A stretch of 64,000 nucleotides of DNA, from the NCBI GenBank assembly GCA_963747235.1, contig CAVVEU010000008.1:256001-320000 (forward strand). Direction: 5' to 3'. The DNA is from an uncultured Candidatus Rokubacteria bacterium. Its GTDB lineage: Bacteria > Methylomirabilota > Methylomirabilia > Rokubacteriales > CSP1-6. Shown here piece after piece: positions 46,058-49,604 of this stretch. Position numbers and translations under genes: made by a program. The notes under the pieces are model-generated. The model saw only the letters and a program-made list of their open reading frames with translations, ran no database searches and was not told where the DNA came from. The first letter of the stretch is position 1, and each line of letters starts with the position of its first letter.

Positions 46058-46954
46058 GTGGATCTACGCCAGCTCGAGATCTTCGTCAAGGTCGCCGAGC
46101 TCGGCTCGTTCTCCAAGGCCGCCGACGCGCTGTTCCTGACCCAGCCCACCGTCTCGGAGCACATCCGCAGCCTCGAGGACGAGCTGGGCGTGCGCCTGCT
46201 CGACCGCCTCGGCCGGGGGGCCGCGGTCACCAAGGGCGGCGCTCCTGCTCCAGGGCTACGCGCAGCGGCTCCTCGCCCTGTCCCGCGAGACGCGGCAGGC
46301 GATGGAGAGCTTCCAGGGACGCATGAGCGGCGAGCTGCTCGTGGGCGCCAGCACGATTCCCGGCGAGTACATCCTTCCCGCCCTGATCGGCCGCTTCAAG
46401 GAGAAGTTTCCCGACATCGCGATCACCTTGCTCATCGGCGACAGCCAGGCGGTGACGGAGTGGGTGGCCGAGGGCCGGGCCGAGGTCGGGGTGGTCGGCG
46501 CGCGCTCGGCGCCACCGGGGCATCGACTACCGCGAGCTGCTGCCCGACGACATCGTCCTCATCGTGGGCGCGGCGCATCCCTGGCACGGGCGCAAGCAGG
46601 TCACGCTGGAGGAGCTGCGCGCCGAGCCGCTCCTGCTTCGCGAGCGCGGCTCGGGCACGCGCGCGGCGCTCGAGGCCGCGCTCACCCAGGCGGGCACCGA
46701 CATCGCGCGCCTTCCGCGTGGTCGGCGAGATGGGCTCGACCCAGGCCATCAAGCAGGCGGTCAAGGCCGAGCGTCGGCGTGTCGCTCGTGTCGCGGCGCG
46801 CGGTCGAGGAGGAGTGCCGGGCGGGCTCGTCTGGTGCCTCCGCGTGAAGGATCTCAAGATCACGCGCGCCTTCTACCTCGCGACCCACCGGGAGCGCAGC
46901 CGCTCGCCCCTCGCGGAGGCCTTCCGCGCCTTCGTCGAGGCCGAAGCCGTCTGA
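46058..46954 (+). CDS. LysR family regulator (selenium-metabolism-associated type), frameshifted
   Basis: DLRQLEIF..GSFSKAA..LTQPTVS, GASTIPGEYILP, RERGSGTR; directly upstream of selD. Confidence 0.85.
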   Translation: MDLRQLEIFVKVAELGSFSKAADALFLTQPTVSEHIRSLEDELGVRLLDRLGRGAAVTKGGAPAPGLRAAAPRPVPRDAAGDGELPGTHERRAARGRQHDSRRVHPSRPDRPLQGEVSRHRDHLAHRRQPGGDGVGGRGPGRGRGGRRALGATGASTTASCCPTTSSSSWARRIPGTGASRSRWRSCAPSRSCFASAARARARRSRPRSPRRAPTSRAFRVVGEMGSTQAIKQAVKAERRRVARVAARGRGGVPGGLVWCLRVKDLKITRAFYLATHRERSRSPLAEAFRAFVEAEAV

Positions 46955-46987
46955 CCGCCGCTCGCGCGGCGCCCGCTTCGTTCGCAC

Positions 46988-48058
46988 ATGGACCCGAAGC
47001 TGATCGATCCGAAGACCGGCAAGGAGATCCGGCTCACCGCTACGCGGCCTGCGCGGGGTGAGCGTCCAAGATGGGTCCTGGAGATCTCCAGGACGTGCTC
47101 GGCGGACCTGCGCGACGAGGAGCACGCCGATCTGCTGGTCGGGCTCGGCCGGAGCGACGACGCCGCGGTCTATCGCGTGACCGACGACGTGGCGATCGTC
47201 GAGACGGTGGACTTCTTCCCGCCCATCGTGGACGATCCCTATCTCTTCGGCGCGATCGCGGCCGCCAACTCGATGTCCGACGTGTACGCGATGGGCGGGC
47301 AGGTGCTGTTCGCGCTCAACGTGGCGGGCTTCCCGCGCGACCTGCCCAAGGACATCATCGCGGCCGTCTTCCGCGGGCGGCGCCGACAAGGTGCGCGAGG
47401 CGGGCGGCGTCATCGCGGGCGGCCACACCGTCGTGGACGCGGAGCCCAAGTACGGGCTCTGCGTCACCGGCCGGGTCGATCCGCGGCGCATCCTGATCAA
47501 GGGCGGGCTCCGGCCCGGGCCAGCGCGTGTTCCTGTCCAAGCCGCTCGGCACCGGCGTGATCGCGACCGCGGCCAAGAACGACACGTGCGAGCCCGCGGT
47601 GCTCGACGGCGCGGTGCAGAGCATGCTGCGGCTCAACCGCGTGGCGGCCCGGGTGGCGCAGGAGGCGGGGGCGACCGGCGCCACCGACATCACCGGCTTC
47701 GGCCTCCTCGGCCACGCCGGCGAGATGGTGGCGGCCTCGGGGGCCGGCCTGGCCCTTCGCAGCGCGGACCTGCCGCTCCTGCCGGGCGCGCGCGCGCTGG
47801 CCGATCTGGGAAGCTTCAGCGGCGGCATGGGCCGCAATCGCCGCTATCTCGAGGAGGACGTTCGGGCGGCTCCGCATCGACCCGGCGGTGCCGGACGCGC
47901 TCGTCAAGCTGCTCTTCGAGTCGGAGACCTCCGGCGGCCTCCTCTTCGCGGTCGACGCGGCGCGCGCCGCCGCGGTGCACGACGGCTTCGCGCGCGCGGG
48001 CGAGCCCGTCTGGGAGATCGGCGAGGTGACCGCCGAGCCGCGCCTCGCGCTGATCTAG
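46988..48058 (+). CDS. selD: Selenide, water dikinase, Sec-containing (TGA 47059-47061); several indels
   Basis: IRLT.YAACAG-U-ASKMGP aligns with Sel[56 protein letters not shown]. Confidence 0.92.
47075..47094 (+). promoter_or_regulatory. SECIS-like hairpin in selD
   Basis: GTCCTGGA-GATC-TCCAGGAC, an 8-bp stem starting 13 nt after the UGA. Confidence 0.75.
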
Positions 48059-48087
48059 GCGTCGCGCGTATGGTCAGCCGCTTCGAG

Positions 48088-48151
48088 CGCGGGCTTCGCC
48101 CGCGCGACCTGCTTTTGGGGGAGGTTCGGACGGGGGGCGAAGCCCCCTCCG
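48088..48151. repeat. Intergenic GC hairpins (REP-like or bidirectional terminator)
   Basis: CGCGGGC-TTC-GCCCGCG and GGGGGC-GAA-GCCCCC between convergent genes. Confidence 0.4.
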
Positions 48152-48153
48152 CG

Positions 48154-48417
48154 CTAGCGACTCGCGTCGGAGCGCTTCAGGAACGCGATCAGCTTCTGGC
48201 GGAGCTCGGCGGGGAGGTTGGTCTCGGGCTGTTCACGGAGACGCCGGGCGGCGTTGACGGTGCCCTTGTAGGTATTGACGAACGCCACGCATGGCGGGCA
48301 ACCGTCCAGATGCCACTCGAGCTGCGCGATCTGATCCTGGGGGAGCGACCCGTCGATGTAATCCGCGAGCAGCTCGACACACTCCGGGCACCCGATCTCA
48401 CGCGACGCTCCGTCCAT
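48154..48417 (-). CDS. Zinc-finger anti-sigma (ZAS/zf-HC2) domain protein
   Basis: C..CVELLADYIDG.L..HLDGCPPC. Confidence 0.85.
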   Translation of the reverse strand: MDGASREIGCPECVELLADYIDGSLPQDQIAQLEWHLDGCPPCVAFVNTYKGTVNAARRLREQPETNLPAELRQKLIAFLKRSDASR

Positions 48418-48557
48418 CTGCTCCCCCTCGCCGATGAGGCGATGACCTTGTAGCGAAACCTTAACACAGGGCCGTCCCGGAGCAAGTCCGTCTTTGCCGG
48501 CCGGAGCCGCGCGTCAATTGCCTTGTCGCGCGGGGCCGGTGTAGGCTCCTCGCAGCC

Positions 48558-49604
48558 ATGGCCGCTCGGGTGGCCGTCCTCACGCCCTTCGCATCGCCGT
48601 CGGTCCGTGGTAACGCCGTCACGGTCGATCGCATCACGCGCGGCCTCCGGCGGCGCGGCGTCGAGCTGCGCGTCTGGGATCTCTCGGTGGTGCCCGAAGG
48701 CGCGGTCGAGCACCAGATCGCCCAGTACGGGCCCGCGGTCATCCACGCGTTCCACGCCTTTCGCACCGGGCCCACCGCGGTACGGCTGGCGCGGCGCGCG
48801 GGCGTCCCCGTGCTGGTGACGGTCACCGGCACCGACGTGAATCAGGACCTCTTCGATGAGGATGGGGCGCCGATCGTCCGGCGGGTGCTGGAGGGGGCGG
48901 GGGCGGTGAGCGTCTTCGACGAGTCGATGGCCGCCCGCATCGTGGAGGTCCTGCCCGCGACGGCGTCCCGGCTCGTGGTGATCCCGCAGAGCGTGGTGTT
49001 CGAGCTGCCGCCCCCCGGCCACTGGCCGCCCATCGCCGCGCTGACGCGGCGGCCCGGCCCCATCATCCTGTTCCCGGCGGGCATCCGGAAGATCAAGCGG
49101 CCCGTGTTCCCGCTGGAGCCGCTCGAGCACTTGCGCGACCGGCATCCGACGCTCGAGCTGGTCTACGTGGGGCCCATCATCGACGCGCCGGAAGGCGAGG
49201 CCCTGCGCCGGCTGCTGTCCGGGTATCCGTGGGCCCAGTACCTGGGGACGGTGCCGCACAATCGAATGCCCGCCCTCCTCGAGCTGGCGGACGTCGTGCT
49301 CAACTGCTCGCTCTCCGAGGGCGGGATGGCCAACGCGGTGCTCGAGGCGCTCGCGCTCGGCCGCGCGGTGCTCGCCGCGGACATCGCGGGCAACCGATCG
49401 CTCGTCGAGGACGGGATCACCGGCTTCCTGTTCGGCTCGGCGGAGGAGCTGGCCGCGAAGGCCGATCGCCTCCTGCAGGATCCCGACCTCCGCGCCCGGC
49501 TCGGCGTGGCGGGGCGCGAGCGCGTCAGCGCGCGCTTCGGCGCCGATCGCGAGACCGACGGCTACCTCGCCGTGTACACGCGACTGGCGCCGGATTTCGG
49601 CTGA
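48558..49604 (+). CDS. GT-B family 4 glycosyltransferase resembling SenB/GLT1D1
   Basis: RGNAVT..R, HAFHA, TGTD, IPQS, GIRKIK, SLSEGGMANAVLE, DIAGN. Confidence 0.85.
   Translation: MAARVAVLTPFASPSVRGNAVTVDRITRGLRRRGVELRVWDLSVVPEGAVEHQIAQYGPAVIHAFHAFRTGPTAVRLARRAGVPVLVTVTGTDVNQDLFDEDGAPIVRRVLEGAGAVSVFDESMAARIVEVLPATASRLVVIPQSVVFELPPPGHWPPIAALTRRPGPIILFPAGIRKIKRPVFPLEPLEHLRDRHPTLELVYVGPIIDAPEGEALRRLLSGYPWAQYLGTVPHNRMPALLELADVVLNCSLSEGGMANAVLEALALGRAVLAADIAGNRSLVEDGITGFLFGSAEELAAKADRLLQDPDLRARLGVAGRERVSARFGADRETDGYLAVYTRLAPDFG

Follow-up and report, generated by a model that had tools for sequence, protein, structure and literature searches.

The glycosyltransferase (GT) analysed here is encoded at positions 48558..49604, on the plus strand, of a 64,000-nucleotide stretch of DNA (the window: contig C8, CAVVEU010000008.1, positions 256001-320000) from an uncultured Candidatus Rokubacteria bacterium, whose genome assembly comprises 5.57 Mb in 42 contigs, is 88% complete and has a G+C content of about 71%. 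By analogy with SenB, we tentatively regard this intact 348-aa GT4 enzyme as a SenB-like selenium glycosyltransferase, that is, a selenosugar synthase, of a separate and much larger NF038229-like clade, a reading to which we give slightly less than an even chance. SenB-type acceptor residues, a LysR regulator of a selenium-associated family beside the GT gene, linkage to selD in one bacterial family and an enrichment of selD in GT-bearing Planctomycetota argue for such a chemistry. A previous reading of the window (the original prediction) had described a LysR gene, a selD of the selenocysteine type, a small ZAS zinc-finger gene and a GT4 gene in this order, with the GT starting about 500 bp after selD. 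All these elements were found at these places, the gap being 499 bp.

The original prediction had hesitated between SenB and a related GPMC-system or GLT1D1-like clade for this enzyme, and hidden Markov model (HMM) searches spoke for the GPMC clade. The best match was NF038229 ("GPMC system family 4 glycosyltransferase"), with 346.3 bits over positions 1-336 of 338 (cut-off 400). The SenB model TIGR04348 was the second-best NCBIfam match and, because it reached 89.4 bits against a cut-off of 300, the GT clade was separated from SenB. The scores for BshA (TIGR03999, 63.5 bits, cut-off 273.7) and MshA (TIGR03449, 39.4 bits, cut-off 462.5) were lower. When the genome itself was searched with the SenB model, the best match was the GT (88.9 bits) and no better candidate was found; with NF038229, the GT was the sole strong match, the runner-up having 83.5 bits. 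Both Rossmann-like domains were above the Pfam gathering scores (PF13692, 73.4 bits; PF00534, 67.8 bits; PF13579, 42.3 bits; PF13439, 35.4 bits). The closest database relatives were named Rokuibacteriota or Methylomirabilota, and the family, which comprises at least 301 clusters at 50% identity (E <= 1e-30), was found in Methylomirabilota, Geobacterales, Planctomycetota and others. All of 69 diverse family representatives matched NF038229 (best E-value 6.2e-119), and 12 further members scored 232-343 bits, under the equivalog cut-off of 400. TIGR04348 was matched at E <= 1e-20 by 58 of the 69 members, whereas the BshA model was matched by 10. As judged from its sequence, the GT belongs to the large NF038229-like clade and not to SenB, and HMM and profile scores suggest that the two are sister families. 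A literature search returned no paper naming the GT family and none using the term "GPMC system"; the SenB papers, in the sections available, regard SenB, together with its close homologs, as the sole selenium glycosyltransferases.

The motifs that had been ascribed to the GT were all read in its translation (G18-N19-A-V-T22..R25, H66-A67, T90-G-T92-D93, Q144-S145, R177-K-I-K180, and S251-L-S-E254-G-G). SenB (Variovorax paradoxus; PDB 8jjn, 8jjq, 8jjt, 8rz3, 8fbx, and 8k5u) is the selenosugar synthase of selenoneine biosynthesis. According to the sections available of its structural description, the selenophosphate pocket consists of N20, H58, R61, T83, T85, and R155, with K158 as the catalytic residue, and the sugar is held by the triad N20, T23, and E231, with E239 for the ribose (PMC10891094). 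The family profile was aligned to RsSenB (8k5u) over positions 3-286, with 112.8 bits, and 11 residues could be mapped, in agreement with the SenB motif series that the original prediction had given. In this sequence-profile alignment, SenB N20, T23, H58, R61, T83, and T85 correspond to N19, T22, H66, R69, T90, and T92 of the GT, and D86, R155, K158, E231, and E239 to D93, R177, K180, E254, and E263. All six selenophosphate-pocket residues and the catalytic lysine are thus identical as aligned. Across the 69 representatives, K180, E254, and E263 were invariant (69/69 each), as was T92 when counted as T/S (69/69). N19 and R177 were each found in 68/69, H66 in 61/69, T22 as T/S in 60/69, R69 as K/R/H in 62/69, and T90 as T/S in 57/69. 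At the position of the SenB EGGAHV motif, the GT has EGGMAN and most of the family EGM.N, while N19, T22, and E254 are present. BshA differs at five of these positions: GT residues H66, R69, and T90 are replaced by Tyr, Pro, and His, in an alignment that starts only at profile position 45, and N19 and T22 by Ser and Ile, in the weakly aligned N-terminal stretch. On the acceptor side, wherever SenB and BshA have different residues, the GT agrees with SenB.

The GT also resembles SenB in its GT-B/GT4 fold (Z 30.9-34.4, root-mean-square deviation (rmsd) 2.5-2.7, 302-311 residues aligned, 24-27% identity), in its GNxxT N-terminal loop and HAxR, TGTD, RxxK, and SxxEGG...E motifs, and in lying near selD in one bacterial family. 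Unlike SenB, it is about 20 residues longer, it neither overlaps nor abuts selD, from which it is separated by the 499-bp gap holding an opposite-strand gene, and no SenA or OvsA gene is linked to it. In the available part of a preprint on it, the SenB gene overlaps or abuts selD/senC and has senA (or ovsA) in its cluster (bioRxiv 10.1101/2022.04.13.486033).

Every chemical step that we propose is taken by analogy from SenB. SelD would make selenophosphate, and the GT would bind a UDP-sugar via R177, K180, E254, and E263. Selenophosphate would sit in a small pocket for oxyanions, lined by N19, H66, R69, T90, T92, and R177, from which its selenium could attack C1 of the sugar. K180 may then activate a water molecule and the Se-P bond would be cleaved, yielding a 1-seleno-sugar.

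The distribution of the neighbouring genes was analysed in 201 genomes of the phylum, including five flagged as unpublished. The GT was present in 159 of them, almost always as a single copy, selD in 197, and a LysR matching NF040786 ("selenium metabolism-associated LysR", E <= 1e-70) in 167. Among the 122 genomes for which both LysR and GT were listed, LysR was located within 10 kb of the GT on the same strand in 103 (102/119 without the flagged genomes G047, the only one of family f9, G029, and G101; genomes, families, genera, and loci are numbered G, f, g, and L). Two arrangements were observed: LysR lies 1.4-7.0 kb upstream of the GT in families f1 (69 genomes), f2 (3), and f4 (1), and 16-178 bp downstream of it in f6 (14), f7 (12), and f9, f10, f11, and f12 (1 each), that is, in 30 of the 30 genomes of these latter families. 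The remaining pairs were on different contigs in 17 genomes and more than 100 kb apart in two. In G008, G007, G044, and G182, the GT-adjacent LysR was the best NF040786 match of the genome (283-311 bits), and in G008, G007, and G182 this gene was far from selD or on another contig. The LysR of a Methylomirabilis locus scored 294.7 bits. In the window, the N-terminal 60 residues of LysR matched NF040786 with 108.6 bits (cut-off 250) and HTH_1 with 80.4 bits; intact orthologs in relatives reached 292-325 bits, and the low score of the window copy, which the genome search missed, is due to frameshifts. The GT is probably part of the regulon of this neighbouring regulator. The LysR regulator HrsM of Methanococcus, in the sections available of its description, is able to mediate selenium-dependent control, possibly via selenophosphate (PMC11097638).

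Linkage of selD to the GT, which the original prediction had proposed as a test, was found in one family and was lost in the others. Sixty-three of the 115 genomes in which both genes were listed have them on the same contig, and in 61 of the 115, all belonging to f1 and none flagged as unpublished, selD lies 455-5737 bp upstream of the GT on the same strand. Twenty public loci show the order LysR-selD-(0-3.7 kb insert)-ZAS-GT, ZAS adjoining the GT in most of them.

Outside the phylum, we compared 401 genomes of Planctomycetota that are at least 90% complete (GT at E <= 1e-60, selD at E <= 1e-50). The GT was detected in 31 and selD in 259; selD was present in 30 of the 31 GT-bearing genomes versus 229 of the 370 without the GT (Fisher one-sided p = 1.3e-5, uncorrected for relatedness; were there 10 independent lineages, the probability by chance would be 0.008). 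In the 13 GT-bearing Planctomycetota for which the position of selD was listed, the two genes were on different contigs or 1.5 Mb apart (G631). Taken over all GT-bearing genomes from outside the phylum, selD was found in 38/41, and it was of the selenocysteine type in eight of the first 10 examined. A scan of 301 Acidobacteriota genomes gave two with the GT, both with selD, too few for a co-occurrence test; in one Acidobacteria metagenome-assembled genome (MAG), 8.4 kb containing several genes of both orientations separate selD from the GT. In a Desulfuromonadales MAG, the GT is followed by a LysR gene, whose best model was NF040786 (138 bits, below cut-off).

However, a series of observations on structure, gene order, and distribution weighs against a SenB-like function. 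First, the family profile scored higher against BshA chains (124 bits) than against SenB (113 bits). BshA also shares T92, D93, R177, K180, E254, and E263, which are thus general GT4 features. The SenB pocket binds phosphate in crystal 8jjn, and the pocket may therefore fit other small oxyanions. The AlphaFold2 model of the GT was of high quality (predicted local distance difference test (pLDDT) 96.0, predicted template modelling score (pTM) 0.93), but the fold searches run with it do not discriminate SenB from BshA, MshA or GlgM: GlgM, SenB, and BshA ranked together in Foldseek, and VIA-align gave Z scores of 37.9 for BshA, 36.9 for MshA, and 34.2-34.4 for SenB. RsSenB (Z 30.9) had 27% identity and the other SenB chains 24%, the highest identities among the structural matches. 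Of 999 aligned chains, 964 had Z >= 8, and all those among the matches listed were GT-B enzymes.

These data leave room for an ordinary GT4 enzyme of the BshA/MshA type, which we consider possible but rather doubtful. Such an enzyme would transfer GlcNAc or Glc from a UDP-sugar to another small anionic acceptor (a carboxylate, a phosphate ester or a sulfur oxyanion), thereby initiating the synthesis of a low-molecular-weight thiol, a compatible solute or a thiosugar, and its nearness to selD and LysR would reflect gene order inherited within the phylum. BshA and MshA (PDB 3mbo, 5d00, 6d9t, and 3c4q), which catalyse the first step of bacillithiol and mycothiol synthesis, match the GT best in structure (Z 36.5-37.9, rmsd 2.2-2.3 over 326-331 residues), BshA chains have the top family-profile scores, and the (T/H)GTD, RxxK, and E..E motifs are in common with BshA. 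In addition, the gene that most tightly neighbours the GT in Rokubacteriales encodes an RsrA-like redox zinc finger, which recalls the link of SigR/RsrA with mycothiol. In thiol pathways, BshA or MshA acts before a deacetylase, and in two loci from unrelated genomes (L076:1291-3128 and L087:2226-4070) a YdjC/HpnK-type carbohydrate deacetylase gene lies directly upstream of the GT homolog; these neighbours hint at a product that is an N-acetyl-hexosamine conjugate and is then deacetylated. The BshA-type assignment fits poorly, however, with the five acceptor-side residues (N19, T22, H66, R69, and T90) that differ between BshA and SenB, which are all SenB-like here and family-wide, and with the alignment of BshA, which leaves the N-terminal 45 residues unaligned so that the GNxxT loop is missing. 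The TIGR03999 score far below its cut-off, the enrichment of selD in GT-bearing Planctomycetota, and the presence of a LysR of a selenium-associated family beside the GT in two different arrangements also argue against it.

Gene order provides the second set of adverse observations. Co-occurrence within the phylum says nothing, because the GT and selD are both near-universal there. Outside f1, selD is found on a different contig or at a distance of 0.7-1.3 Mb; the other same-contig pairs are separated by 708 kb in G008 and 1.34 Mb in G182. Even among relatives, up to 5.7 kb is inserted between selD and the GT. The GT and selD do not form an operon and are not co-transcribed, as indicated by the minus-strand gene between them, the inserts found in relatives and the unlinked selD of other families. 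In Methylomirabilales-type families, gatB, an AsmA-family gene, the GT, LysR, and a class II (D/K/N-type) aminoacyl-tRNA synthetase gene follow each other on one strand. In f2, the gap between LysR and ZAS is occupied by transglutaminase and AhpC genes (L136) or by ABC-transporter genes (L137), and not by selD. Furthermore, in genus g45, which has no GT, a LysR-transglutaminase-(AhpC)-luciferase-like monooxygenase-ZAS block persists. Some of the GT linkage is thus plain inherited synteny, and, given the housekeeping row, the genes in the f2 gap and the g45 block without the GT, the two LysR-GT architectures count as about two evolutionary events rather than 103. This persistence of the block, like the unlinked selD outside f1, is what a BshA/MshA-type enzyme in an inherited gene order would lead one to expect. 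At the place of the GT, the two g45 loci (L146 in G108 and L147 in G138) carry a PrpD/MmgE-family gene; the AhpC/redoxin gene is found in L146 only.

The housekeeping row would also suit a GT of the cell envelope, acting in glycolipid or outer-membrane biogenesis and travelling with housekeeping genes, as would the Joint Genome Institute (JGI) annotation of relatives as "glycosyltransferase involved in cell wall biosynthesis" and the single copy in 159/201 genomes of the phylum. We judge this improbable: the AsmA gene does not adjoin the GT in Rokubacteriales or outside the phylum, the model is a compact 348-aa GT-B structure devoid of a membrane-anchoring segment or extra domain, and the small size of the conserved oxyanion pocket speaks for a small acceptor. 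The GT is also missing in several near-complete genomes of the phylum, such as those of g45 (97-99% completeness), and it is thus not essential.

Third, selD was not detected in some GT-bearing genomes. Among the Planctomycetota, the exception is G604 (7.2 Mb, at least 90% complete), which has only an 87.6-bit selD paralog. No selD was detected in GT-bearing G204 (1.4 Mb) and G205 (1.1 Mb), two small low-GC genomes whose completeness is not established, and their GTs keep the whole SenB pocket. These three GT-bearing genomes lacking a detectable selD are in line with a BshA/MshA-type function. In the GPMC loci proper of Geobacterales, there is no selenium gene nearby, and an enzyme consuming a selenosugar was not seen linked to the GT in the loci examined.

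The original prediction had noted that neither senA nor egtB is present in the window, and this was borne out for the whole contig C8, on which no EgtB/SenA-like match was found; the matches of this genome are on contigs C33 and C40. On C33 (L139, C33:60000-75000, positions 4033-8995), an EgtD gene (353.8 bits, cut-off 290.9) is divergent from a sulfoxide-synthase homolog that scored 261 bits with OvoA, 241.7 with EgtB, and 229.1 with SenA and reached none of the cut-offs (400, 360, and 420, respectively). This part of C33 is a possible locus for ergothioneine or selenoneine, found for the most part in this genus. About 430 bp past the downstream end of the homolog, beyond a 127-aa open reading frame (ORF), lies a gene for a molybdoenzyme of the DMSO/selenate-reductase family (598 bits, below cut-off). 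In this genus only, the GT might take the place of SenB in a split pathway to selenoneine, with the C33 enzyme using the selenosugar. The divergent EgtD gene and the occurrence of the homolog in 12 of the 13 other members of the genus are favourable to this proposal, but with all scores of the C33 enzyme below the curated cut-offs and its gene on a contig other than that of the GT, we regard it as very improbable. Across the phylum, the EgtB-like gene was found in 27/201 genomes, mostly of this genus, including the GT-negative G104, G109, G117, and G166, and more than 130 GT-bearing genomes do not have it. An EgtB-like enzyme was thus ruled out as a general partner of the GT. Nor can the sugar generally end up in selenoneine, which is not its fate in most of the phylum.

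As for selD, it has its ordinary job in this genome, since selA is present (578 bits) and selU was not found there.

The loci after which NF038229 is named were also inspected. In L075 (Geomonas) and L086 (Geoanaerobacter), genes for an NF038230 sigma-54 regulator, TIGR04442, and an NF038231 metallo-beta-lactamase (MBL) hydrolase are divergent from the GT; L074, from a delta-proteobacterial MAG, has a GPMC context and was scanned only as far as TIGR04442. The Rokubacterial GT has the same conserved residues as NF038229 and differs from these loci in its neighbours, which are LysR, selD, and ZAS. In its own genome (88% complete), the best NF038231 match had about 30.3 bits and TIGR04442 had no match; NF038230 was not searched for. 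TIGR04442 was considered as a possible selenoprotein and rejected, the split ORF in L074 being a frameshift at a TAG with no in-frame TGA. In a Geobacter sp. MAG (L090:5849-9028), a GT homolog (NF038229, 362 bits) has on one side an ArsS-type gene ("arsenosugar biosynthesis radical SAM (seleno)protein", 357.8 bits) and on the other a gene for a sugar kinase of the ROK family, a context unlike both the GPMC and the Rokubacterial ones.

With regard to the GLT1D1-like alternative of the original prediction, a feature search of the ESM Atlas placed chordate GLT1D1 clusters at rank 3 (score 0.99, 222/256 features shared, nine matches with the set). The likeness of GLT1D1 (glycosyltransferase 1 domain-containing protein 1) to the GT is a language-model lead only. 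A literature search covering titles and abstract openings of the papers listed gave no link between GLT1D1 and selenosugars. It would be an unlikely, though far-reaching, extension that the whole NF038229-like family, including chordate GLT1D1 by this lead, consists of selenosugar synthases, so that a general route from selenophosphate to 1-seleno-sugars would serve storage, detoxification or excretion, and GLT1D1 would be the enzyme behind the selenosugars that vertebrates excrete. To our knowledge, the enzyme making these excreted selenosugars has long been sought and none is known.

The layout of the locus is as follows. LysR, a probable NF040786 ortholog, extends from a GTG at 46058 to 46954 on the plus strand, preceded by a sigma-70-like promoter match (TTTACA-17-TATACT, 46022..46050, plus strand, 10 of 12 positions agreeing) located 8 bp before its start. 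Thirty-four bp further downstream, selD runs from an ATG at 46988 to 48058 (TAG at 48056-48058), also on the plus strand; its fragments matched TIGR00476 with 121.7 and 99.6 bits. It is of the selenocysteine type: the N-terminal Gly-rich loop (..CAG-U-ASK..) contains a TGA in frame, at 47059-47061. The minus-strand gene at 48154..48417 encodes an 87-aa ZAS/zf-HC2 zinc-finger protein with a CxxC..HxxxCxxC motif, which matched PF13490 (40.5 bits, above 22.2) and, below the cut-off of 62.5, the RsrA model TIGR03988 (34.4 bits); on the ORF map of the window, it has no sigma factor gene as a neighbour. Since ZAS converges with selD and diverges from the GT, the GT lies outside the selD transcription unit.

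The 140-bp divergent region between ZAS and the GT (48418..48557) presumably holds the promoters of both genes. An alignment of this region from 18 loci showed conserved blocks, one resembling TATAAT and assigned to ZAS on the minus strand, and one resembling a -10 element some 12 nt ahead of the GT start; inspection by eye revealed no LysR box common to the loci. A consensus scan for sigma-70-like sites found two in 4.4 kb versus 0.0 expected from shuffles, and none in the ZAS-GT region. The second site (49758-49786) precedes a MoxR-DUF58 operon, and the GT thus looks monocistronic. No terminator was found after selD by consensus scan, and positions 48059-48153 fold no better than shuffled sequences (z = 0.05).

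LysR and selD each carry five single-base indels in the assembly, as compared with two close relatives (L047 and L048), at 46243, 46510, 46707, 46770, and 46826 for LysR, and at 47039, 47103, 47374, 47512, and 47858 for selD. ZAS and the GT have none, and the GT is one open frame in a single phase of G+C content at third codon positions (GC3 0.93). The window is 91% identical to L047 at the DNA level. The translated LysR and selD pieces are 73-100% identical to those of same-genus relatives (L047-L051): all but the last piece of each gene have 94-100% identity to L047, and LysR pieces have 92-100% identity with pieces of L047, L048, L050, and L051. The selD genes of the relatives are intact, with one in-frame TGA each, and GC3 phase switches like those of LysR and selD occur all along the window. 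Because the pieces stay similar to those of relatives and the switches run window-wide, the ten indels are probably assembly errors and not a sign of decay. In many genes of the window, the GC3 phase flips every few hundred bases (for example at 2475-5835, 24135-26715, and 49905-51045), between clean stretches of 1-3 kb. With the many single-base indels that the assembly seems to carry, gene calls from this genome would be fragmented.

Other genes surround the locus. Just upstream of LysR, an FmdB-family zinc-ribbon gene (45727-45948, plus strand; TIGR02605, 55.9 bits) encodes a protein with a Gly/Cys-rich tail, and a small plus-strand ORF at 45486-45662, which starts with MAEQKKKETRPTKPAEGGDD and is later apparently frameshifted, is by eye a candidate Pup-like (prokaryotic ubiquitin-like) gene. 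After the GT, the region 49951-57665 (plus strand) encodes a frameshifted MoxR AAA ATPase, a protein of 414 aa without a Pfam match, and a DUF58 protein, followed by a very long ORF; the same row also trails the GT in relative L128.

SenB is the sole known enzyme that joins selenium to a sugar, and it is known only within the selenoneine and ovoselenol pathways. If the GT had another function, its family would still be a large GT4 clade, as yet uncharacterised, in which a pocket for small oxyanions is conserved. If instead the GT and its family are selenosugar synthases, selenosugars made with no SenA would, in soil Rokubacteria, Geobacterales, and Planctomycetota and perhaps also in animals, serve as carriers or be end products themselves. 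This would provide the LysR regulators of the NF040786 family with a target gene and would represent a second branch of small-molecule selenium metabolism.

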